Source: a candidate division WOR-3 bacterium
GTDB taxonomy: Bacteria; Hydrothermota; Tepidihabitantia; SM23-42; JAOAFX01
Assembly: GCA_039802265.1 (NCBI GenBank)
Contig: JBDRWI010000035.1
Span: 1-23,672 of the forward strand
Direction of reading: 5' to 3'
Length of the DNA stretch: 23,672 bases
Position numbers and translations under genes: made by a program. Numbering within the stretch: position 1 is the first letter of the stretch; each line of letters opens with the position of its first letter. Positions 494-23,000 of the stretch are shown here, piece after piece. The notes beneath the pieces are model-generated. The model did not search any database. It saw only the letters and a program-made list of their open reading frames with translations, and was not told the DNA's origin.

Positions 494-1276
494 TTAATAA
501 TGTCCTAAAAGTCCTTTGTCTTTTGCAATTTTTTCACAATATTTAAAGATAAAAAAACCAATTGCCAGATAAAAAAATGCTACAAAAATTGTTAATAGCA
601 AATCGCTCAAAGGCATCTGAAGAATAGAGATTTTATTTATCATACTCTTGTTAATAAGTTTTGTGCCCAGGGTAAATGGTAATAATTTAAATCCTGGGTA
701 CTTATCAACCGGCAGGGCAATGAAACCAACAAAGATAAATTGCAAAATCTGGAAGAAAGACTGGATTTTTTTGAATATCAAACCAAGGCCACCAACAATA
801 AATCCAATTCCATAACCACAGGCAACAGTGCAGAGTAATAAGGGAATTAAGGTCAAGAGGTCAAGGTGTAAGTATCGGCCAGTAGTTACCATCATCAATA
901 AAAGGATGGGTATAACCCAGAAAAGACCCCAGAGGAAGTTGGCGACGATTGTGTATATTGCAACTGCACGATAGCCGAGTGGTGTCATATACAACTGTTC
1001 AAGGGTGCCTGACCTTGCCTCTTGAGTGATGCCCCAGGATAATATGCTGTAAGCACCGATTGCATAGGTCCAGACAAAGAAACCAACAATAAATGCCTCA
1101 AGGGTCTTTGCGCCGGAAGGTAGATTACTGCCCAAGACATTGTAGCCAAAGAAAAAGACCAGAAATACGAGATAGATCGTAATAATCCCGGAGATTGTAT
1201 TAAATGGATAACGCTTCAATTCAATCCAATCTTTGATAAAAATCATCTTAAACAAATTCCAGTGCCTACTTCTCAT
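494..1276 (-). CDS. ABC-2 type transporter permease
   Basis: 260 aa with about six hydrophobic segments and an EARSGTLEQLYMTP motif typical of ABC-2 permeases. Overlaps the end of the upstream ATPase. Confidence 0.9.
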   Translation of the reverse strand: MRSRHWNLFKMIFIKDWIELKRYPFNTISGIITIYLVFLVFFFGYNVLGSNLPSGAKTLEAFIVGFFVWTYAIGAYSILSWGITQEARSGTLEQLYMTPLGYRAVAIYTIVANFLWGLFWVIPILLLMMVTTGRYLHLDLLTLIPLLLCTVACGYGIGFIVGGLGLIFKKIQSFFQILQFIFVGFIALPVDKYPGFKLLPFTLGTKLINKSMINKISILQMPLSDLLLTIFVAFFYLAIGFFIFKYCEKIAKDKGLLGHY

Positions 1277-2237
1277 CTTTCACCAACCTGAGATAAATCT
1301 CTTCAAAATCAGGCTCAATATTCTGAATTCCGAGTAATTTGATGTTATTTTTCTTAAGAATTTCAAGGACCTCATAAATCTGCATTGGTTCATCGATGTC
1401 AATATCAATACAGGTCTTTGTTTCATTTGCGATAAATCTTGTCCCGAAGAATTTTTGAGATAGTTCCATTTTAATTTTCTCATCAATTGAATTTATCACC
1501 TCAAAGCGATAGGTATTTATCGCAAAGAATTTCTTTAACCTGCTCACCGACTCATCCGCAATAATCTTTCCCTTATTGATAATTATAACCCGCTCACAGG
1601 TATCCTCAACCAGTTTCATATTATGCGAACTCAAAAGGATTGTCTTGCCTTCTTTGGCAATTTTCGTCCTTAATAATTCCTTTACTTCATTGGTGGTTTC
1701 AACATCAAGACCGAGGGTTGGTTCATCAAGGAGTAGAATCTCAGTATTTTTTATTAAGGCACAGGAGATTGCCAGTTTCTGCTGCATACCCCTTGAGAGG
1801 AAACGCGCCTCAGTATCTACCTTCTCCTTTAGTCCAAAGGTTTCAACAAGTTCTTCAATCTGCGCCTTTACCTCTTTTCGACCGTATCCCATAAGCCCGG
1901 CGAAGAATTCAAGATTCTCCCTTACACTCATCCGCCAGTAAACATTGCGATTCCCCTCAAGGACTGCGGCAATCTTCTCAAAGGCAAAATTTGGCCTTTT
2001 GATAACATCAACACCATCAATAAGTACCATCCCTGAACTGGGGTTTATCAACCGGCACAGACACTTGATAGTTGTCGTCTTACCCGCCCCATTTGGACCC
2101 AAAAATCCAACTATCTCACCTCTTTTTAAAGTAAATGAAATCCCATCAACTGCCCGCACAGTCTGGGTTTTGTTCTTATAAATTTTTGTTAAATTTTCAC
2201 AATAAATTACTTTATTATTATTAAAATTATTAATCAT
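1266..2237 (-). CDS. ABC transporter ATP-binding protein (DrrA/CcmA-like); start probably ATG at 2237 rather than 2246
   Basis: Walker A GPNGAGKTT, signature LSRGMQQK, Walker B LLLDEPT, H-loop SSH. The ATG at 2246 overlaps the -10 box, so the in-frame ATG at 2237 is more likely. Confidence 0.92.
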   Translation of the reverse strand: MINNFNNNKVIYCENLTKIYKNKTQTVRAVDGISFTLKRGEIVGFLGPNGAGKTTTIKCLCRLINPSSGMVLIDGVDVIKRPNFAFEKIAAVLEGNRNVYWRMSVRENLEFFAGLMGYGRKEVKAQIEELVETFGLKEKVDTEARFLSRGMQQKLAISCALIKNTEILLLDEPTLGLDVETTNEVKELLRTKIAKEGKTILLSSHNMKLVEDTCERVIIINKGKIIADESVSRLKKFFAINTYRFEVINSIDEKIKMELSQKFFGTRFIANETKTCIDIDIDEPMQIYEVLEILKKNNIKLLGIQNIEPDFEEIYLRLVKDEK

Positions 2238-2244
2238 ATTGCTC

Positions 2245-2272
2245 ATTATATTAAAATTTTTTAATTTGTCAA
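2245..2272 (-). promoter_or_regulatory. sigma70-type promoter for the second ABC pair
   Basis: Perfect TTGACA-N16-TATAAT on the minus strand, 7 nt before ATG 2237. Confidence 0.75.
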
Positions 2273-2352
2273 TGAGTTGAGGATGGCAATTTTAAAAGAA
2301 TCAATTTTATATCTCCCTTTAATTTCGCACCCTCAATTAGCTTCGAGATGTG

Positions 2353-3111
2353 CTAATAAAAAGTAAGACTTTTTCTGCAAAACCAAAGAAAGAAAGTACC
2401 TTCAATGAAAAGGACAGAGAATAATATTAGTGTTTCTAAATTCAGAGTACCAAAGCAGATTAATCTAATCAACCATGCAGATTGGTGTACTGGTGAAAAT
2501 TTAATTATTGAGGCTAAAGCTTGCGGGAGGCGATTTTCAGGTATCATAACGGGTATTATGAAAGCCAAAAAGTATAAAAGAATTTGGCCAATGAGATTTG
2601 CTTCCAAGGGATTGCGTGCTTTTAGCCCTATAAATGCTCCTAATCCTGCGATAGAGTAAGAACATAAAAAACAAGCCGGTAATAGCAGTATTAATGCCAA
2701 GCTGATATTCAAAGGACACTTGAACAGCAACATTCCCAAGACAAAACTTATCATTGCAGACGGTAAAGCTGCGCAGAACTCAGCTAAGGTAAGAGCAAAT
2801 ACATAAGAACTTACTGAGATTGGCAAAAGAGTAAATAACTCCAATGTGCGTGTCTTTTTATGATTTGCTATCTCCTGCATTAATAGACTAATTGAGCCAA
2901 CGGAAAGCGCTAAGACTATATTCCCTGTGAGCAAATAAAAACTGCCTATTGGATCAAGATTGAACTGGGAGAGTTTGAAAAACAATAAAAAACTTAGTAG
3001 AAAGAGTGGCAACACAAAGAAACGGAGAATAAAACCACTTTTTATTTCTGCCCATCTTATCTGAAACAGTAGACCTATTTCTTCTATTTTATGAAGGAAA
3101 TAATTCATCAT
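2353..3111 (-). CDS. ABC-2 type transporter permease (RiPP cluster)
   Basis: 252 aa, hydrophobic, with an EIANHKKTRTLELFTLLP motif. ATGA overlap with the upstream ATPase. Confidence 0.85.
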   Translation of the reverse strand: MMNYFLHKIEEIGLLFQIRWAEIKSGFILRFFVLPLFLLSFLLFFKLSQFNLDPIGSFYLLTGNIVLALSVGSISLLMQEIANHKKTRTLELFTLLPISVSSYVFALTLAEFCAALPSAMISFVLGMLLFKCPLNISLALILLLPACFLCSYSIAGLGAFIGLKARNPLEANLIGQILLYFLAFIIPVMIPENRLPQALASIIKFSPVHQSAWLIRLICFGTLNLETLILFSVLFIEGTFFLWFCRKSLTFY

Positions 3112-4043
3112 TCAACAATTATTTTGTGATAGATATCTTCTAACGTAGGTGGATATATATACATATTTTCTATATCTTTTTTCTCGTAAAGTAGCTTCAG
3201 GAGAATATTCAATTGCTCTGATTCGGTAATCAATTTCACTTCGGAGCTGTTTATAAAATATACCGGAACCGAGCATACCTGTCGTATCTCATGTATTAGC
3301 TCCTGACGTGTTAGTACATCAAGCGGTATTCTATATCTCACATAGATGGTAAGCTCTTTCCCTAAATTGTTTATTATGGTTTCTGGCCTGTCATCTAAAA
3401 TTATTTTGCCTTTATTCATAAATAAAACGCGGTCAACCCTTTGTTGAATGTCTAGCAGATTATGTGTGACAAGGAATACACTTTTTCCACACTCTTTTAT
3501 CGAAAAAATATAATCCCACAGTATTTTTCGCATTCCAGGTGAAAGATCGTTTGTTGGTTCATCAAGGAAAAAATAATCTGCAGACCCCATTGTGGCGTAT
3601 CCAAAATTCAATATCCTTGCTTCACCCCCGGATAACGAACTTATCGGTCTTTCTTTTTTTCCGGATAAATTGAATTTGTATAAAAAATTCTCAACCGCCT
3701 GTTTAGATTCTTTATGATTCTTATGATTGAGCCTGGCGATTATATATAAAGCATTATACATAGGAAGATCTCCTAATATCCAAGGAACTTGTGGAACATA
3801 GGCAATCCTTGATTTTAATGTTTCTCTGTTTAGAATGAGATCTCTACCATCCAATAAAATATGTCCGCTAGTTGGTTTTAAAATGCCAACTATCTGTTTT
3901 ACCAAGGTCGTTTTCCCAGCGCCATTAGGACCAAGAAGCGCAATTATCTCGCCTTTCTTTATTTGCAAATTGATATTCTCATTTGCCAGTACCCTTTTAT
4001 CTCTTTGGCAATATATCTTTGTAATTCCTATGATTTCTATCAT
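3108..4043 (-). CDS. ABC transporter ATP-binding protein (RiPP cluster)
   Basis: Walker A GPNGAGKTT, signature LSGGE, Walker B FFLDEPT, H-loop VTH. ATGA overlap with the radical SAM gene. Confidence 0.92.
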   Translation of the reverse strand: MIEIIGITKIYCQRDKRVLANENINLQIKKGEIIALLGPNGAGKTTLVKQIVGILKPTSGHILLDGRDLILNRETLKSRIAYVPQVPWILGDLPMYNALYIIARLNHKNHKESKQAVENFLYKFNLSGKKERPISSLSGGEARILNFGYATMGSADYFFLDEPTNDLSPGMRKILWDYIFSIKECGKSVFLVTHNLLDIQQRVDRVLFMNKGKIILDDRPETIINNLGKELTIYVRYRIPLDVLTRQELIHEIRQVCSVPVYFINSSEVKLITESEQLNILLKLLYEKKDIENMYIYPPTLEDIYHKIIVE

Positions 4044-5482
4044 ATTGTTTTGTCAGACAAAACATTAATTGCGTATGCTATAAGTGTCTCTTTAATTACC
4101 TCTTTGCGCATGTCACAGGCATCAAACATGGAAGGTGAAATAAACTTTCTATTTAGGATATATTCACCTGCTGGACAGCCAGTGCAATAGAATTGTAGAT
4201 AACAATCAGCGCACTTTTTATATTGTGCTTTTTCACTAATCTTTCTGTACTTCCTTATAGATTTGCGAAGCGCATAATGAATTTTATCAAAGTCACTAAA
4301 TACATTTTCTATCTTAAACTTATTTAATCCAACGAGTAATTGACATGGATAAATATCTCCTTTTGTTGTTATTGTGAAATTTGATACCCCAAAGTCACAA
4401 AACAATTTGGATGGAGAAGTTGATAAAATTTGGTGCGTAAATATTTGCAACCGTCGAATAAATTTAATTCTTTCGTCAATGTATATGTTTTCTGATATTC
4501 TGTTGACGTCACGTATTCTCTCAAATTGTAATGAAGTTGCAATAGTCTGGGAAAGTGACAGTGAATCGTTTTTTGAAATAACGGGGACAACAATAACATT
4601 AGTAATTCCAAATCTCTTTTCGAAGTAATCTTGCAAATCGGAAGGCGAGATGCCTAAAGTGAGATGTTTTTTGGTATAGGTAACTTCCACAGATATTGGT
4701 TGACCATACGGTTTTAAAATATCTATATTACGAGAAATAATTTGGAAAGATGGTTCACCGTTCTTAAATGGGCGTTGGATATCATTAATACTTGCCGGCC
4801 CATCACAACTAACGATTATATTAAGTTTTTTTTCGCTGGCTAACAATTTTATTAACTCTTGGATTATACCGTTAGATACTGCAAGACTCGTAACTATAAC
4901 AAAATTGGGGTTCATTTTAATCTTACCAGTTAAAGCCAAATAATTTATTCTTTGAATGACATACTTAATGCACGATAAGTTAAGGAGTGGCTCACCCCCA
5001 AAAAACTGTATAGAGTAAATGGCAGGGGAAAATTTTGTAAAAACCGAAATGATTCTTTCCGCTGTTTTAATAGACATTGAAGATGAATCACCATAAGTTC
5101 CGTCCTTAGCGTAACAATATATGCATCGTAAAGTGCATCGCTGGCATATAAGTAGATTTAGACGTCGCAGATATCCGTTATTTAAACAAATATTTTTCCG
5201 ATCGTCTAAAAGAACTTCTAATTCACTCTTCACTTTATTTATTACAATCGCATTTTTTATGACAATTTTTTCTATATCTTCTGGGTCGTTACTGTTGAGC
5301 AATTCATCAAAAAAGTTTGTATGCAGTGTGTCCAATTTGAATATACTAAGTGAAGGGCTGTGCCAAAGAATACTCATAGTCTTATCTTTTGTAGTAAATA
5401 AATAAAGATCCCTTTTGATCTTGTTATAGTTTTTATATAATAGATCAATTATTGTTCTCATAATTATATTATCTAATTTCAA
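4040..5482 (-). CDS. Radical SAM/SPASM-domain peptide maturase; start uncertain (TTG 5482 or ATG 5461)
   Basis: CxxxCxxC (CTLRCIYC) and FFGGEPLL. SPASM cysteines C-x17-C (CDFG...GDIYPC) and C-x2-C-x5-C-x2-C-x19-C. About 100 aa N-terminal extension precedes the radical SAM core. Confidence 0.92.
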   Translation of the reverse strand: MKLDNIIMRTIIDLLYKNYNKIKRDLYLFTTKDKTMSILWHSPSLSIFKLDTLHTNFFDELLNSNDPEDIEKIVIKNAIVINKVKSELEVLLDDRKNICLNNGYLRRLNLLICQRCTLRCIYCYAKDGTYGDSSSMSIKTAERIISVFTKFSPAIYSIQFFGGEPLLNLSCIKYVIQRINYLALTGKIKMNPNFVIVTSLAVSNGIIQELIKLLASEKKLNIIVSCDGPASINDIQRPFKNGEPSFQIISRNIDILKPYGQPISVEVTYTKKHLTLGISPSDLQDYFEKRFGITNVIVVPVISKNDSLSLSQTIATSLQFERIRDVNRISENIYIDERIKFIRRLQIFTHQILSTSPSKLFCDFGVSNFTITTKGDIYPCQLLVGLNKFKIENVFSDFDKIHYALRKSIRKYRKISEKAQYKKCADCYLQFYCTGCPAGEYILNRKFISPSMFDACDMRKEVIKETLIAYAINVLSDKTI

Positions 5483-5556
5483 TCTAAAAACTTTTTATCT
5501 TCATAGAACTAAAGATAAACAACATCAAATTCACTTTATTAAACTAATTATATATA

Positions 5557-5593
5557 CAGTCCCCCCTCCATAAAACCTAGTGAGGAGGGACTG
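5557..5593 (-). terminator. GC-rich stem-loop between precursor and maturase (partial terminator or mRNA stabiliser)
   Basis: Minus strand CAGTCCCTCCTC-loop-GAGGGGGGACTG, a 12-bp stem with one G-U pair, followed by an AU-rich tail without a clean poly-U run. Confidence 0.65.
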
Positions 5594-5616
5594 CATTATC
5601 TTACGCGGTGAGAAGA

Positions 5617-5718
5617 TTACCACACTATGCCACTACATGAACCGCCACAAGCAATAACACCGCAGCCACCAGCACCGGCACCAACGGTCTGTTTTGAATC
5701 TCCATTTAGTCTGATCAT
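5617..5718 (-). CDS. Putative RiPP precursor peptide, 33 aa: MIRLNGDSKQTVGAGAGGCGVIACGGSCSGIVW
   Basis: Translated by hand: ATG at 5718, TAA at 5617-5619, strong SD AAAGGGGGTGA just upstream. Cys/Gly-rich C-terminal half. Lies between the sigma54 promoter and the rSAM/SPASM gene. Confidence 0.88.
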   Translation of the reverse strand: MIRLNGDSKQTVGAGAGGCGVIACGGSCSGIVW

Positions 5719-5809
5719 CTTATTCACCCCCTTTCATTCCACAATTTTGTGGAACGCTGTTTAACCCGTATCCAAACCTTAATCCAACAATCATCTGTTA
5801 AACATATAT

Positions 5810-5826
5810 AGCAATAAGCGTGCCAG
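5810..5826 (-). promoter_or_regulatory. sigma54 (RpoN) -24/-12 promoter
   Basis: Minus strand CTGGCACGCTTATTGCT matches TGGCACG-N4-TTGCW exactly. Predicted start near 5799, about 80 nt before the precursor ATG. Confidence 0.88.
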
Positions 5827-5864
5827 GTATAGACTGTTGAAATTTCAAGAGTTTTAATTTCTTT

Positions 5865-5983
5865 ACTGACATCCTATGTCAGTGGGTTATCCACATTTTA
5901 CTACAAATTTTTAAAAAACTCTTGAAATTTCAAAAATTTTCTTACTGACATAGAATGTCAGTTTTTTGACATAAAATGTCAGT
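5865..5983. promoter_or_regulatory. Three palindromic upstream activator-like boxes (TGACAT-N3-ATGTCA)
   Basis: ACTGACATcctATGTCAGT (5865-5883), ACTGACATagaATGTCAGT (5944-5962), TTTGACATaaaATGTCAGT (5965-5983), all upstream of the sigma54 promoter. Confidence 0.75.
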
Positions 5984-6112
5984 AAAATTAAAATTTGCCA
6001 TTTTTCACCGAAAAATCCAAAAACTTATGAAATTTCATCGCTTTCCACTCAAAATCTATGCATTTTTTGATGATTTTTGTAGTATTCTACATTTTTACGG
6101 GAATAAAGCATG

Positions 6113-6219
6113 CCCTGATGAAAATCAGGGGCCCCTACTCCAATATATAAACAAAAAGATACATCCAAGGGCTAAGGCCCTTGCAACCACAGATTCTTCG
6201 GCTCCGCCTCAGAATGACA
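6113..6219. repeat. Cluster of REP-like hairpin repeats at the 3' end of the activator gene
   Basis: CCCTGAT-GAAA-ATCAGGG (6113-6130), CAAGGGC-TAAG-GCCCTTG (6166-6183), and TGTCATTCTGAGGCGGAGCCGAAGAATCT on the minus strand (6191-6219). Confidence 0.5.
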
Positions 6220-8023
6220 GATAAGGCTCACCTTGATTTCTATTTTCTTTTATCATTTTCAAATACCGATAGAGTTGACGCTCAGAAAGATTGAGTAATG
6301 AGCAGGTCTTTTTAATGTCCTTTTTATTTGTGACAAAGCATTCATAGACTAATTTTGCCTTATATTGCCTAACTTTTTCTTCTATTGAGAGAGGTCGAGC
6401 ATATTCTAATCCCAAATCCTCAACATCAATATATTCTTTCCGGCAGGTAAAGAATGCCTGTTTTAAAATTCCTTCGAGTTCTCGCACATTACCCGGGAAG
6501 TCATAGTTCATCAGACACTTTTTTGCCCGCTCCGTTAATCCGGCAATGAAGCCTTTATGATTATTTCTTATCTTTTGCAATAGATGCTCAATCAAATCAG
6601 GAATTTCTTCTCTCCGCTCACGCAGAGGCGGGATTTTAATAACCGGCGAATGGATTCTGTAGTATAAATCTTCACGGAATTTGCCCTGTTTTACAAGTTC
6701 TTCAAGATTTTGATTTGTCGCAAAGATAAATCTGACATTCACAACCCGCTCTTCGTTGCTTCCCAGGGGAATCACCCGCTTATCTTCCAGAACCCGCAAA
6801 AGTTTTGCCTGGACATCAATGGGCAATTCAGCAATCTCATCAAAGAAGAGCGTGCCCTGATTCGCATATTCAATCTTCCCAATCTTATCATATCGGGCAT
6901 CAGTGAATGCCCCTTTTCTATAACCGAACAACTCGGATTCAAATAGTGTTTCAGGTATTGCTGCACAGTTTACAACGACAAACCGCTCACCAGCCCTTGC
7001 ACTTGAATTATGAATTGCCGATGCAAGCAATTCCTTACCGGTGCCACTTTCACCAAAAAGTAAAAGATTTGTATCCTGGCCGGCAAGATGCCTTGCCCTT
7101 GTCTTTATCTTCTCTATTCCAACTATGTCATCAAATGTATAATTTGCTCCAAACAAATTTATTTTTCTTTTGTTTTTTGCTTCTGTAATTGGCTCAAGAA
7201 TAAACAAAAATTTATCATTATATTCCTTGCGTATGACCAAAAAACTCTTTTCCAGTCGTTCTGATTCAAAAATTTCATTTATTATTGTTCCGGGTCTTAA
7301 AATCTTCTGGTCAAAGGTATGAAGAATGTTTTCTCCGGATTCAAGTTTCAAAAAACTTGTTGCCTTGGGACTCAGCCATCGGATAAAACCATCCTGTTCT
7401 GTTACTACCATAATGACATTCAGGGTGTTGACCAGAGAGATTAAGAAATCGCATTCGATCAACTTTTTGTATTCCTCTTCAATTAATTTTGCCAGAATCT
7501 GCACAAGGGCAAAGGTATGGGGATGTCCCTTCTTTTGAGGATGAACAATAACAACGGCGCCTAACAATTCTCTTTTATAAAAAATTGGGGCACTGAAACA
7601 CGAGCCATTTTGAAAAATTTTTAGATAGTATTCTTTGCCTGAAACATAAAATGGAATTTTGTATTTCAAACAGAGTGCCACTGCATTTGTGCCGGCATCT
7701 TTTTCCTGAAGCGAAACACCTTCTATTAGTCCAATTTTCGAACGGGTCTTCAATACTGACAAAGGACCCACTGCCTTCAGGACATATCCTTCTTTATCAG
7801 TTAGGACAACAATTGACCCGCATAATTTAAATGTCTCACTACAAAAATTCATCAGTGGTAATGCAGAATTGATATAGGTTTGAAGCTCTCTCTGTCTTTT
7901 TCCAATCTCCTCAGAAGAAAGCCTTCTCCCCAGGTAGTTCTTGCTTCTGTCCAGACCACAGGAACTACAGAAATTTTTTGATCTCTCAATTAACTTTTTT
8001 CGGTTATGAATTATAGTCTCCAT
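6209..8023 (-). CDS. sigma54-dependent enhancer-binding protein, AcoR-like (GAF + AAA+ + Fis HTH)
   Basis: GAF-like GTNAVALCL region, Walker A GESGTGKE, ESELFGY-x2-GAFTDA, Walker B FFDEI, FREDLYYR, FPGNVREL, C-terminal HTH (LNLSERQLYRYLK). SD AAAGGGAGG. Confidence 0.93.
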   Translation of the reverse strand: METIIHNRKKLIERSKNFCSSCGLDRSKNYLGRRLSSEEIGKRQRELQTYINSALPLMNFCSETFKLCGSIVVLTDKEGYVLKAVGPLSVLKTRSKIGLIEGVSLQEKDAGTNAVALCLKYKIPFYVSGKEYYLKIFQNGSCFSAPIFYKRELLGAVVIVHPQKKGHPHTFALVQILAKLIEEEYKKLIECDFLISLVNTLNVIMVVTEQDGFIRWLSPKATSFLKLESGENILHTFDQKILRPGTIINEIFESERLEKSFLVIRKEYNDKFLFILEPITEAKNKRKINLFGANYTFDDIVGIEKIKTRARHLAGQDTNLLLFGESGTGKELLASAIHNSSARAGERFVVVNCAAIPETLFESELFGYRKGAFTDARYDKIGKIEYANQGTLFFDEIAELPIDVQAKLLRVLEDKRVIPLGSNEERVVNVRFIFATNQNLEELVKQGKFREDLYYRIHSPVIKIPPLRERREEIPDLIEHLLQKIRNNHKGFIAGLTERAKKCLMNYDFPGNVRELEGILKQAFFTCRKEYIDVEDLGLEYARPLSIEEKVRQYKAKLVYECFVTNKKDIKKTCSLLNLSERQLYRYLKMIKENRNQGEPYLSF

Positions 8024-8314: not shown

Positions 8315-9808
8315 TTATCGTTCGATTTTCACAAACCGCATGAACTGTTCACCGTCACTCACAAAATAGACACCAGAGTTAAGGTCAGCGCCAATTTTGT
8401 CGGTTGGATATGTTCTTATAATTCTTCCGCTGATATCGTAAACCGTACAGTATTTTTTTGTACTTCCTTTTAGGATTGCAAAAGAAGACACGGGATCTGG
8501 AACAAGAAATATATTATTTACAATTTTACGCTCTCTTCTATTATCTTTAATCGTGCCTGGATAATATTCATATGCACCTATATCCCAGTAAAGCCCTTGG
8601 GGCCGTGCTACACCAATTATATCATACAAGACTTCAAGGAGTGAATCACCACTGTCAATTGCTGGAGAGAGGGGTTGGAGTCTGAAGTCATTATTTATGG
8701 AATCAACAAACATTGGGTCCTGATTCAGGATATCATGCGGGCCAACTACGGTCGGTGGATTGGCGCCAAAGATAAGGTTATAATCGCCGGATGCAGTTGC
8801 TGTATCAGTCCACCAGTAACTGGTATTGGTGTTGAAAAAGATGTTGTTTCTTACATCTTCATTCTGCGCATACTGACCACTGAATCCAACGCCGTGCCAC
8901 TGGATATAGGCAAAGGTGTTGTTGTAGACCTTTATATTAGAGATATTTTGAACACATAACCCCCATGCCCCACCCCGGGCAAAGATGTTATTTTTAAAGA
9001 TAATATCATGGGAATTATGATAGTAATTTGCTGAGCCCATAAATCCCTGGTGAAAATCAAAACCGCGATTGCCGTCAATCACAACATAACAGGCGTGTTC
9101 ACCATTATTATCAAATGTCTGGAAACAGTCAACATGGGCAGAGCCAATTGAATCAAAGTTAGTCCCGTGAAAATAATTATTTTTAAATAGAATACTATCA
9201 CCGGCAAACCTTGTATAATCACAGTCTCCGGATTGGTAATAGAAAAGGCGTTCAATTTCATTATTTTCAATTATCCAGTTCGTTCCCTGGGCACATATCC
9301 CCATCTGGCAGTGAAAGATTTTATTGTTTGCAATGTAAATACCTCGCGGCCATGGCTGTGACCAATTCCCCTGGATTGCGGGTTTTCGGAAATTTGCAAT
9401 GTAGTTATCAACTATCTCAACATTATCACTGCTGATGAATATTCCAAAATCCCGCCAGCCGGTTAGAGATGTATCCCATTCAATATTAAAACCTTCAATC
9501 CGTATATAACTACCCGCATTCGGTGAATTTGTATCAAAACCCCAGGTCGTGGCGGACCTTCTTGGATGGGATTTGAAGACAATCTTTTGTGCAGGTGTGC
9601 CTGAATGTTGTAAGAGAACCCTTTCTCCATAAAATCCTGGAAGGACAAGCACCGTGTCGCCAGCAATGACTGTGGAGCAGGCATGATTTATATGGCGCCA
9701 GGCAGAGTCCGGGCTTGTGCCTGACAAATTGTCATTACCATTGACTGAGACATAATAGGTTGCGCCATAAGCGCAGGTCAATAAGTATGCATATATTATT
9801 ATTCTCAT
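8315..9808 (-). CDS. Secreted right-handed parallel beta-helix (pectin lyase-like fold) protein with T9SS-like C-terminal tail
   Basis: ATG 9808 after SD GGAGGT, signal peptide, TYYVS..GND..G..P N-terminus, repeated I-x-NN-x-F/I motifs, DFRLQPLSPAIDSG...DIGAYEY region, C-terminal VYDISGR...GVYFV...FVKI. Confidence 0.8.
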   Translation of the reverse strand: MRIIIYAYLLTCAYGATYYVSVNGNDNLSGTSPDSAWRHINHACSTVIAGDTVLVLPGFYGERVLLQHSGTPAQKIVFKSHPRRSATTWGFDTNSPNAGSYIRIEGFNIEWDTSLTGWRDFGIFISSDNVEIVDNYIANFRKPAIQGNWSQPWPRGIYIANNKIFHCQMGICAQGTNWIIENNEIERLFYYQSGDCDYTRFAGDSILFKNNYFHGTNFDSIGSAHVDCFQTFDNNGEHACYVVIDGNRGFDFHQGFMGSANYYHNSHDIIFKNNIFARGGAWGLCVQNISNIKVYNNTFAYIQWHGVGFSGQYAQNEDVRNNIFFNTNTSYWWTDTATASGDYNLIFGANPPTVVGPHDILNQDPMFVDSINNDFRLQPLSPAIDSGDSLLEVLYDIIGVARPQGLYWDIGAYEYYPGTIKDNRRERKIVNNIFLVPDPVSSFAILKGSTKKYCTVYDISGRIIRTYPTDKIGADLNSGVYFVSDGEQFMRFVKIER

Positions 9809-10035
9809 CCGAACCTCCAATAATTATGTCAGACATTGAAACTTATAATCAGAGAAATCTGGATTCTAAATTTTCAGTTATGATTCCCGAGCAGATTCGG
9901 TTTTCAATACTTTCCTTAAGATTCTTCAACCTTTCGGGCTAAGAATGGCATTGCGACACACACTCTTTAATTTTGCAACATATTATTCCCTTGAATATAT
10001 ACGCATAACTGAGCCTAAAAACCGGCAAATTAAAC

Positions 10036-15685: not shown

Positions 15686-16270
15686 TTATGAGGGTAAGGA
15701 TAAAAGCACCCTTTTACATATCTCCTTTAAGGTCTCAAAGACTCCGATTCCTTGAACCGCTACAGCCTCAAAATAGGGATATTTATTCTGGGGATTCAAA
15801 ACCTTCTGGAGTTCTTCAACTGAAGTAATGTTGGGTAGGTCTCTCTTATTATATTGGATAATCAGCGGAATTTTCTCAAGTGACATATTATATGTCTTTA
15901 AATTGTCTTCCATATTCTGGAATGATTCAATATTTTCATCAAACCTCTCAATCTGGGAATCGGCAACAAAGACAATTCCATCCGCACCTTTTAAGATTAG
16001 TTTTCGGGAGGCATTATAGAATACCTGTCCGGGCACGGTATAAAGATGGAATCGCGTCTTGAATCCCTTGATTGTGCCCAGGTCAACAGGCAGGAAGTCA
16101 AAAAATAGTGTGCGGTCAAGTTCGGTGGCAAGGCTGATTAATTTTCCTTTTATCTCGGGATTGAGTTTTGAATAAATATATTTTATATTCGTCGTCTTGC
16201 CTCCGAGTCCCGGACCATAGTATACAATCTTGCAATTGATTTCCCTTGATGCGTAGTTAATTAAGGCCAT
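15686..16270 (-). CDS. mglA: MglA small Ras-like GTPase
   Basis: MALINYASREINCKIVYYGPGLGGKTTN, RTLFFDFLP, TVPGQVFY, QYNKRD. Start set at ATG 16270 from the family N-terminus. Confidence 0.93.
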   Translation of the reverse strand: MALINYASREINCKIVYYGPGLGGKTTNIKYIYSKLNPEIKGKLISLATELDRTLFFDFLPVDLGTIKGFKTRFHLYTVPGQVFYNASRKLILKGADGIVFVADSQIERFDENIESFQNMEDNLKTYNMSLEKIPLIIQYNKRDLPNITSVEELQKVLNPQNKYPYFEAVAVQGIGVFETLKEICKRVLLSLPS

Positions 16271-16305
16271 CAGTGCTATTAAATATTGATTGTGTTTTGC
16301 GCATT

Positions 16306-16800
16306 TCAAAAACCAAATAACTTATCCAATTCGTCTTCGGCCGCCTTTGTAAAATCCATATCAAATGGTTTCTGGTTAGTTTCGGTCTTACCAATTTTTG
16401 AAAATATATCTTCAAATATCTTTTCCAGTTCCAGTGCGGTATTCTTTGCCTTTACCCGAACCAATCCCAGTGTCGTGCGCTGGTCAAAAATTACCGCCAA
16501 TATTACCCGATTGGCAATCAAACAGACATATAAATTTTCCTTCTCGCCCTGATGGAATAATGTGGAAAATTCCTTCTCGCCAATCAAGGAGGCAAGCTGG
16601 CTGGTGGCCGCAAAATCTGCGGCCGAGAGTGTAGCAAATGAAGAAACATCAAGCCGTGTGGTATCACCGGCTGAGGTGATAAGTTGACCGGCCTTATCAA
16701 TAAGGAGAATAGTTCGGGCATTTGTTCCCTGCAACAGGCGATTCAATGCCTCGGTTATTGCCCAGAAGTCCTCTTCAAATATATTAAGACCTTCCTGCAT
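16306..16800 (-). CDS. mglB: MglB roadblock/LC7 protein (GAP partner of MglA); start ATG 16800 or 16803
   Basis: LIDKAGQLI, LIGEKEFSTLFHQGE, TTLGLVRV motifs. Directly upstream of mglA. Confidence 0.9.
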   Translation of the reverse strand: MQEGLNIFEEDFWAITEALNRLLQGTNARTILLIDKAGQLITSAGDTTRLDVSSFATLSAADFAATSQLASLIGEKEFSTLFHQGEKENLYVCLIANRVILAVIFDQRTTLGLVRVKAKNTALELEKIFEDIFSKIGKTETNQKPFDMDFTKAAEDELDKLFGF

Positions 16801-16806
16801 CATAAT

Positions 16807-16834
16807 ATTATAAATAGAATTTGACAAAAGTCAA
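16807..16834 (-). promoter_or_regulatory. sigma70-type promoter for the mglB-mglA-dnaE run
   Basis: TTGACT-N16-TATAAT, 6 nt before ATG 16800. Confidence 0.7.
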
Positions 16835-21851: not shown

Positions 21852-23000
21852 ATGGCTAATAACTACTTTCAGGAGAGAAAAGATGTAATCATAAATCTTT
21901 TTATTACCAGTCGGTGTAATGCAAACTGTCGTGAGTGTGTCAATCAAACAATCACATTAAATTCCGGGCTGGATTCTAAAATACTTGAATCTGATGTTGA
22001 CCGGGACACGGCATTGATAAAGACAATTCTTAAAAAACACAAAAATTTACCTACTACAGTTTGTTTTTATGGTGGTGAACCCCTGCTTCTCCCACAAAAA
22101 ATTGTTCAGATAATCCAGCGATTATCGGACAACGGTAGCGATAACCGTCTCAGGTATATGATTTACACCAATGGAGAAAATATTGCTAACTTCTTTAAAA
22201 ATTATCCCCCAGTTGCTCGTAAAATCTGGATTTACGCAGTATCCATTGATGGTGATGAAGTCCAGCATAATAAATTCAGATTGGGCACGGATTTTAAGAG
22301 GATCAAAAAAAATCTGCAATTCATAAAGGAAAGATACAGGGGTAATATCCTGATGTGGTCAACATTGAGAGAAGAACAATCGTTATTAAACTGTTTCAAA
22401 GAATTTGTGAGACTGTATCAAAAGGGACTCGTCAATCATTTCTTCTGGCACTGGTTGGAAACTCCAGAGGAATTCAAAGATTTCCCAAGATATTTTGAAA
22501 GTTATACTGATGAATTTGGGGTTATTGTAGATTCTTATATCAAATATCTGAAAAAGGGAGAACTTCTCCCCATTGCCCATTTAAATGAATTGGTTTTGTA
22601 TCTAATTACTAAAAAAGAACGTGGTCATACTGCCTGTGGAGCCGAACTACCCACCAACTATGACCTTATTGGTGGAAAAGTTCTGGCCTGTGTTGACCTC
22701 CCCTTTAAGCAGGGAAAGGATTTGAAAAAAAATTCCAAAAAATTATTGCGCTTCAAGAAAGAACTCGGATGCAATCAATGTGAAATTCATTTTTATTGTG
22801 GAGGACGCTGTCCGGTGCAGGTCTTCTGCGGGGCCCAGAAAAGAACCAAGCAGTATTGTGATTTATTAAGGGCGCATGTCCAAATTGTCCAATTAAGACT
22901 TGAAGAAATAAAAAATGCGCTAAAAGAGAAAAATCTAACCTTACAGGAAATTTATGACCGTTCCGCCTTTATTGTCAGATACACCGATGTAACACCTTAG
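21852..23000 (+). CDS. Radical SAM/SPASM protein, resembling the AF0577 (TIGR04084)-type putative peptide-modifying family
   Basis: CNANCREC, FYGGEPLL, YTNG, SIDG, SPASM-like ACG...LAC and CxxC-x5-CGGRC...YC. The family call is from memory of motif layout. Confidence 0.85.
   Translation: MANNYFQERKDVIINLFITSRCNANCRECVNQTITLNSGLDSKILESDVDRDTALIKTILKKHKNLPTTVCFYGGEPLLLPQKIVQIIQRLSDNGSDNRLRYMIYTNGENIANFFKNYPPVARKIWIYAVSIDGDEVQHNKFRLGTDFKRIKKNLQFIKERYRGNILMWSTLREEQSLLNCFKEFVRLYQKGLVNHFFWHWLETPEEFKDFPRYFESYTDEFGVIVDSYIKYLKKGELLPIAHLNELVLYLITKKERGHTACGAELPTNYDLIGGKVLACVDLPFKQGKDLKKNSKKLLRFKKELGCNQCEIHFYCGGRCPVQVFCGAQKRTKQYCDLLRAHVQIVQLRLEEIKNALKEKNLTLQEIYDRSAFIVRYTDVTP

Follow-up and report, generated by a model that had tools for sequence, protein, structure and literature searches.

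A 33-codon gene beside a radical SAM/SPASM enzyme of a WOR-3 bacterium as the likely precursor of a three-cysteine thioether peptide

A 33-codon open reading frame (ORF) in the genome of a candidate division WOR-3 bacterium is probably a conserved small gene supplying the precursor for the radical SAM/SPASM enzyme encoded next to it, which would convert it into a three-Cys thioether peptide exported by ABC-2 pumps. The reading of this ORF as a precursor is supported by comparison with related loci, and a thioether-bridged peptide of 15 residues, delivered to the outside of the cell, is the most likely product as far as can be judged from sequence. The ORF lies in the window, by which the whole stretch of 23,672 nucleotides analysed here is meant, within a block extending from 8023 to 494 where all genes occupy the minus strand in the order activator, promoter, peptide, hairpin, enzyme and two ABC-2 pairs. 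The peptide gene and its translation signal are placed as follows.

5617..5718, minus strand: putative precursor peptide of 33 residues (translation; alignment with three peptides of related loci)
5724..5734, minus strand: ribosome-binding site AAAGGGGGTGA (direct reading of the sequence)

Translation of the minus strand at 5617-5718 gives MIRLNGDSKQTVGAGAGGCGVIACGGSCSGIVW followed by a stop codon, in agreement with the original prediction of a real 33-residue ORF at this position, which had left the strand unstated. The peptide is arranged as an 18-residue leader with Gly-Gly at its end, followed by a 15-residue core, CGVIACGGSCSGIVW. Cysteines occupy positions 19, 24 and 28 (C-x4-C-x3-C), the final residue is Trp33, and the core past the Gly-Gly contains no Asp, Glu, Thr or Asn, so that the composition described earlier can be read directly in the translation. 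The very strong Shine-Dalgarno sequence that had been claimed is also present: AAAGGGGGTGA is separated from the ATG at 5718 by five bases. An alternative GTG start occurs at 5727, three codons 5' of the ATG; since it falls within the ribosome-binding site, ATG 5718 has been taken as the start. The GC content of 5600-5699 amounts to 0.52, compared to 0.18-0.33 in the flanking 100-nt windows and a genome mean of 0.41, which bears out the description of the ORF as GC-richer than its surroundings. Among the 8,994 ATG-started ORFs of 25-60 codons in the whole genome, 11 combine three or more Cys with eight or more Gly, thresholds that were set post hoc with the peptide already known; the peptide ORF is the shortest of these and the sole one with a word resembling a ribosome-binding site upstream. 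A single copy of the peptide is present in the 2.3-Mb genome.

Equivalent small ORFs have been detected beside related enzymes in Elusimicrobiota (L010), Desulfobacterales (L011) and Anaerolineae (L012). Their peptides are MEIVKYECVAQGASAGGGCGIAGCGGAC, MKAIDLLPSGLEGPRAAGGCTGGNACGNCGIR and MKAIALLPSGPNGPQARGGCAGGNACGNCAAMT, respectively, each encoded by an ORF of 28-33 residues with a GGAGG-type ribosome-binding site, and in all three loci a hairpin can be seen by eye 3' of the peptide stop codon. Alignment of the four peptides reveals M1, G17, G18, C19, G26 and C28 to be invariant, with nine residues from the first to the third Cys in every case, and this Gly-Gly-Cys register is retained across loci of very different base composition. 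The middle Cys stands at +5 in the window and Elusimicrobiota peptides (C-x4-C-x3-C) and at +6 in the Desulfobacterales and Anaerolineae peptides (C-x5-C-x2-C). The conservation of frame and Cys spacing that the original prediction had proposed as a check has therefore been observed for the Gly-Gly-Cys register and for the third Cys at +9, while the exact C-x4-C-x3-C spacing is shared by the Elusimicrobiota peptide only. The terminal Trp, singled out earlier as a feature of the core, is found in the window peptide and in none of the three relatives, and Trp33 has been rejected as a cross-link partner for this reason. Core size varies as well, one relative having a core of 10 residues compared to 15 in the window, and the Elusimicrobiota core consists of Gly, Ala, Ile and Cys only, its last residue being the third Cys. 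A short Cys-bearing precursor ORF accompanies the enzyme in all four clade loci with context (the window and the three relatives). When GGC-x(4,5)-C-x(2,3)-C was sought in frames of 15-120 residues, a motif defined after the peptides were known, it was found at the four clade loci and at one unrelated place among 171 loci, some of which are duplicates.

The spacer upstream of the peptide gene and the region directly behind it contain the elements of a control region, listed here from the activator gene downstream.

6209..8023, minus strand: sigma-54-dependent activator with GAF sensor, AAA+ sigma-54 interaction domain and C-terminal DNA-binding tail (Pfam)
5833..6045, no strand: second palindromic element, core TTGAAATTTCAA, three copies (family D1; inverted pairs I1, I4 and I5)
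5862..5983, no strand: palindrome CTGACAT-N3-ATGTCAG, three copies (repeat families D2/I3)
5810..5825, minus strand: sigma-54 (-24/-12) promoter TGGCACGCTTATTGCT, an exact TGGCAC-N5-TTGCT, 91 nt upstream of the peptide ATG
5554..5596, minus strand: 15-bp G+C-rich hairpin between the peptide gene and the enzyme gene (RNA fold)

The activator comprises 604 residues, with Pfam matches to Sigma54_activat (215 bits), AAA_lid_14 and GAF, and scores below every NCBIfam equivalog cut-off, its top model being PrdR (288 bits; cut-off 795). A spacer of 490 nt, which holds the promoter, separates it from the peptide gene. Exact matches to TGGCAC-N5-TTGCW number one in the window, the promoter itself, and five in the 2.3-Mb genome, with none for the reversed-pattern control. 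The genome also encodes RpoN on contig C24 (345 bits, above its cut-off), so that a -24 GG/-12 GC promoter, an adjacent activator gene and rpoN, the components of a sigma-54 transcription unit, are all present. The three sites of CTGACAT-N3-ATGTCAG are the only ones in the 2.3-Mb genome when up to one mismatch is allowed (reversed-pattern control, 0) and are probably upstream binding sites of the activator. Copies of the TTGAAATTTCAA element interleave with them, and this element may be bound by a second factor or by a bending protein. According to the mechanism proposed here, the GAF domain would sense a signal, upon which the activator, bound to the palindromes, would switch on sigma-54 transcription. 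The hairpin has a folding energy of -31.8 kcal/mol (z = -4.35), with none of 200 shuffled sequences equally stable, and probably adjusts the ratio of precursor to enzyme as a partial terminator or attenuator; by passing on part of the transcripts it would leave more message for the peptide than for the enzyme and pumps. A search of 5300-6400 against Rfam returned no family at gathering score, only sub-threshold chance matches on the palindromes, none of which overlaps the peptide ORF. Directly upstream of the activator gene, at 8315-9820 on the minus strand, lies a gene whose beta-helix product carries a choice-of-anchor Q domain and a weak type IX secretion sorting tail.

Behind the enzyme gene, the block continues with two pairs of transport genes.

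3108..4043, minus strand: ABC transporter ATPase, DrrA-like, overlapping the stop of the enzyme gene (Pfam ABC_tran)
2353..3111, minus strand: ABC-2 permease, partner of the preceding ATPase (Pfam ABC2_membrane)
1266..2246, minus strand: second ABC ATPase, DrrA/GldA-like (Pfam/NCBIfam)
494..1276, minus strand: second ABC-2-type permease, the last gene before the contig end (weak Pfam ABC2_membrane_3; hydrophobic sequence)

The genes of the first pair overlap one another, and their products resemble those of the Anaerolineae cassette, with 34% identity between the ATPases (E 4e-54) and 36% between the permeases (E 4e-32). In that locus an ABC ATPase and an ABC-2 permease are encoded between peptide and enzyme, as they are in the Desulfobacterales locus from the start of its sequence, and pumps homologous to those of the window thus occur in two of the three related loci. 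This first pair, being conserved with the cassette, would export the product, and the second could protect the producer. The permease of the second pair matches ABC2_membrane_3 with 17.3 bits, under the cut-off, and the contig stops about 490 nt beyond its gene. No protease gene has been seen in the operon. Gly-Gly was considered as the cleavage mark of a C39 peptidase and rejected, as the operon is without a C39-peptidase domain according to Pfam.

These regulatory and transport genes also bear on the role of the product. It is possible, if doubtful, that the peptide is made as proposed and serves as a regulated signal or as a redox or metal-handling peptide, and not as an antibiotic. Control by a sigma-54 activator of its own, equipped with a GAF sensor, would suit such a role, as would the sigma-54-type response regulator and the RpoN-like ORF found upstream in the Elusimicrobiota locus, beside the peptide, and no immunity gene is recognisable in the operon, the second ABC pair aside. 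The two ABC-2 pump pairs, on the other hand, fit export combined with self-protection, an arrangement common in bacteriocin loci, and the operon encodes no receptor kinase.

The enzyme is encoded between the hairpin and the first transporter pair.

4040..5461, minus strand: predicted radical SAM/SPASM peptide maturase of 473 residues (Pfam Radical_SAM, Fer4_12 and SPASM)

The ATG at 5461 has been taken as its start, because the N-termini of its relatives align there and a database member of 473 residues exists. The protein exceeds the cut-offs of Pfam Radical_SAM, Pfam SPASM and TIGR04085, and contains the cluster motif CTLRCIYC (CxxxCxxC) as well as a seven-Cys SPASM tail (C-x13-G-x4-C ... 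C-x2-C-x5-C-x2-C ... C). Its four top NCBIfam matches are all peptide maturases, namely PapB (NF047865; 158 bits, cut-off 340), the nif11-like peptide maturase (TIGR04064; 157.3 bits, cut-off 518.7), the SCIFF maturase (TIGR03974; 120.3 bits, cut-off 425) and a ScfB-related model, among which thioether formation is ascribed to PapB and the SCIFF maturase; the streptosactin maturase GggB follows at a distance (NF050038; 69.7 bits, cut-off 650). The nif11-like model matches all 13 members of the subclade of the window enzyme, with a best E value of 1e-52, the score of the window enzyme itself being below the cut-off. The top sequence match in the PDB is CteB (5WGG, 91 bits), and a Foldseek search with an AF2 model of the enzyme (mean pLDDT 76.8) likewise returned CteB first (5WHY; E 5.9e-20, 478 columns, compared to 392 for anSME, an enzyme not known to have an N-terminal peptide-binding domain). 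The model shows, ahead of the barrel, strands at residues 19-23, 30-34 and 39-43 followed by helices at 45-56, 60-69 and 71-85. Three strands and then three helices constitute the layout of leader-recognition (RRE) domains, although no PqqD-type domain has been found by Pfam in residues 1-105. This N-terminal domain would dock the 18-residue leader; the shortness of this leader as a ligand for a recognition domain counts against the favoured explanation.

Enzymes of this kind have a patchy distribution. A match at E <= 1e-30 is found in 4 of 271 WOR-3 genomes, the source genome included, and the enzymes of the other three (loci L005, L006 and L007) are only 30-31% identical to that of the window in this search and 27-28% in a further comparison. 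The eleven closest enzymes anywhere are 31-42% identical, and named sources among them are Thermoanaerobacter mathranii (WP_418365878), Defluviitoga tunisiensis (CEP78041), Petrotoga (sp. 9PW.55.5.1, WP_158526192) and Thermosipho (WP_077287234). Scanning the genomes of species representatives yielded 79 loci. In a FastTree phylogeny of 89 rows, drawn up after omission of two duplicate loci, of locus enzymes with less than 95 bits in comparison with the window and of database sequences shorter than 390 residues, the enzymes of the window and of the Elusimicrobiota, Desulfobacterales and Anaerolineae loci fall into one clade of 25 rows with a support of 89. An IQ-TREE phylogeny of 38 rows picked by hand places these four on the same side of a branch labelled 97* and joins the window enzyme to the thermophile proteins in an 11-row set labelled 96*. 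The three related enzymes are 33-35% identical to that of the window, and the clade is rare: samples of 301 Elusimicrobiota and of 401 genomes from the class of the Anaerolineae locus contained one match each, in the starting genome. A scan of metagenome contigs with the enzyme gave two weak partial matches only, a tblastn search of plasmids gave seven distant matches (25-30% identity), and a scan of viral contigs gave 80 loci, all distant, in which the peptide motif is absent, save for one unrelated Asp-rich peptide. The enzyme gene of the Elusimicrobiota locus (L010/L091), at about 2617-4068, contains a single in-frame TAG, for which a pseudogene, a sequencing error or read-through are all possible.

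The core of the operon (window positions 2001-6000) has a GC content of 0.33-0.35, below both the 0.37-0.43 of the remaining contig and the genome mean of 0.41. This low GC content, together with the patchy distribution, fits an acquisition of the operon by transfer. Elsewhere on the contig, a gene for a small Ras/Arf-like GTPase adjoins a Roadblock/LC7 gene (15686-16827, minus strand), the two resembling an MglA/MglB-type pair. Near the other contig end, at 21852-23000 on the plus strand, lies the gene for another radical SAM protein (382 residues; 62 bits with the PapB model), which is unrelated to the first, and no Cys-rich, short precursor-like ORF has been seen within 1.3 kb upstream of its gene.

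Several characterised maturases can be compared with the window enzyme. CteB, the maturase of the SCIFF ranthipeptide thermocellin, shares with it a complete SPASM motif and the proximity of a short, Cys-rich precursor (CteA in its case), and its likeness in fold to the window enzyme covers the whole length, apparently with the N-terminal domain included. CteB reportedly links Cys to Thr, an acceptor that the window core does not contain. Six Cys within about 45 residues are typical of SCIFF peptides, whereas the window peptide has three in 33. At the positions of six residues of CteB located near the active site (F112, F152, T186, S210, H363 and Q364; PMC10288494), the window enzyme has Y, F, T or V (the alignment being ambiguous here), S, Q and L. 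The small rings formed by PapB on closely spaced Cys of PapA, the freyrasin precursor, are similar to those proposed here; PapB joins Cys to Asp or Glu (PMC9413430), whereas the window core contains neither and is without the Cys-x3-Asp/Glu repeat of its substrates. Streptosactin, made by GggB from GggA, carries unnested rings from Cys to an alpha-carbon, Cys25-Ser28 and Cys31-Gly34 (PMC8172795), and provides a parallel for short rings onto Ser or Gly in a Gly-rich core. GggB is described as nearer to ranthipeptide synthases than to classical sactipeptide synthases (PMC10288494), and the same resemblance is observed for the window enzyme. The GggB system differs in being streptococcal and quorum-regulated, in having a dedicated protease and in its two Cys instead of three.

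As Asp, Glu, Thr and Asn are missing from the core, a possibly new chemistry had been proposed. This step is not needed, as Ser, Gly and Ala are established acceptors already: links from Cys to the alpha-carbon are known for Gly and Ser in streptosactin and for Ala in ruminococcin C1 (PMC8172795). New chemistry for the window peptide is conceivable, though unsupported. Links of the alpha-carbon (sactionine) type are preferred, because the Elusimicrobiota core offers Gly, Ala and Ile alone besides Cys and ends on the third Cys; our preferred guess is that at least one such link would point towards the N-terminus. The enzyme would abstract a hydrogen from each acceptor residue and join the acceptor carbons to Cys19, Cys24 and Cys28.

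Another possibility, which is considered unlikely, is that the peptide is a real substrate on which the enzyme performs a reaction other than the formation of Cys thioethers, be it epimerisation, a C-C link to Trp33 or an anSME-like oxidation of Cys. The enzyme reaches the cut-off of no functionally defined NCBIfam model, and SPASM enzymes outside the thioether group are found among its fold matches, namely anSME (E 1.4e-12, 392 columns), SuiB (4e-11) and EpeE (1e-6). SPASM clades have moreover been described as polyfunctional (PMC10288494). Against this, the three Cys, two of them invariant and the middle one shifted, constitute the only reactive side chains common to the four peptides, a Trp is missing from the other three, and the thioether-forming CteB tops both the sequence and the fold matches, while PapB and nif11-type maturases lead the NCBIfam results. 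The thioether peptide remains the favoured product.

Small Cys-rich peptides beside SPASM enzymes have also been detected in the three other WOR-3 genomes with an enzyme match, where they measure 52-58 residues, contain six Cys and are encoded upstream of the enzyme.

L005, 211-387: six-Cys peptide
L006, 1083-1241: six-Cys peptide
L007, 1084-1245: six-Cys peptide

They follow the pattern ...CGD-x-C-x-GV[IV]CGG[ST]C-x-GG[WF]CGYS-x-C, and their loci continue downstream with a 200-residue protein, an ABC ATPase and membrane proteins. The phylum and the position of the peptide directly upstream of a SPASM enzyme are shared with the window, as is the word GV[IV]-x0/1-CGG[ST]C-x-G with its core; in L005, a near-consensus sigma-54 promoter (TGGCAT-N5-TTGC) is located 98 nt before the peptide, with the tail of an activator gene upstream. 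Nonetheless, the enzymes of these loci belong to another part of both trees, and the peptides differ from that of the window in their greater length, their six Cys and an Asp following the first Cys. Tandem arrays of 3-5 near-identical peptides of 36-39 residues have been observed upstream of further SPASM enzymes (L015/L016/L019 at about 1500-2700, L018, L029 and L036), in Oscillospiraceae and relatives; these peptides, of the type MEFKMNEV..ILEETE.P.FG..CGGGCWGIGC.., have no NCBIfam match.

Searches of protein collections have recovered no further members of the peptide family. The window peptide has no match in Pfam or NCBIfam, and when it was compared with NCBIfam together with its three relatives and seven peptides from neighbouring clades, only two chance-level matches (E 0.2) were returned. 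A profile of the peptides found no member among 1.84 billion representatives, where one irrelevant protein of 239 residues was matched (E 9.9e-4), nor in a set of 5.8 billion proteins, where none of the 29 candidates reached E <= 10. With alignments that include the peptide, the latter set yielded solely three proteins out of 227 candidates, all from the six-Cys family of WOR-3, whose members are listed as hypothetical proteins and have no NCBIfam model, and a search of the ESM Atlas was uninformative (top score 0.81). The four-peptide family is thus effectively unannotated, having neither a Pfam nor an NCBIfam family. That the ORF is merely a chance, untranslated frame in the 5' leader of the enzyme mRNA is very improbable: a length of only 33 codons and its absence from the two predicted-protein collections would suit such a frame, whereas a GC peak in an AT-rich spacer, a strong and well-spaced ribosome-binding site, a hairpin right after the stop, equivalent Gly-Gly-Cys ORFs next to the enzymes of related loci from three further phyla of widely differing base composition, and the lack of an overlapping Rfam match all speak for a translated gene.

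Full-text searches of the literature revealed neither an account of these peptides as a family nor one of a comparable radical SAM RiPP under sigma-54 control. The clade may be contained in the data set of 15,000 enzymes of one study (PMC10288494). The novelty lies in this particular group of peptides, in how small they are and in the clean regulatory region. Whether these add up to more can only be suggested tentatively: the peptides may constitute the first recognised family of three-Cys RiPPs that is invisible to gene finders, defined by a leader of about 18 residues, a Gly-Gly-Cys junction and a Cys at +9, scattered by transfer over at least four phyla, leading to a compact multi-ring thioether and, in the window, placed under a dedicated sigma-54 switch. 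As the acceptors in cores of 10-15 residues would be limited to Gly, Ala, Ser and aliphatic residues, the resulting scaffold would be very compact and unlike that of the hairpin sactipeptides. The findings would add an uncurated and unannotated precursor family to the peptides of radical SAM/SPASM enzymes and provide a very small substrate for testing the acceptor rules of CteB-like enzymes. Since its nearest named relatives come from Thermoanaerobacter and from Thermotogota (Defluviitoga, Petrotoga and Thermosipho), the enzyme may be sturdy, and its use as a tool for peptide stapling can be envisaged, if speculatively. Finally, the combination of a palindrome unique in the genome with a GAF-domain activator would make the regulatory switch of this RiPP operon unusually easy to read.
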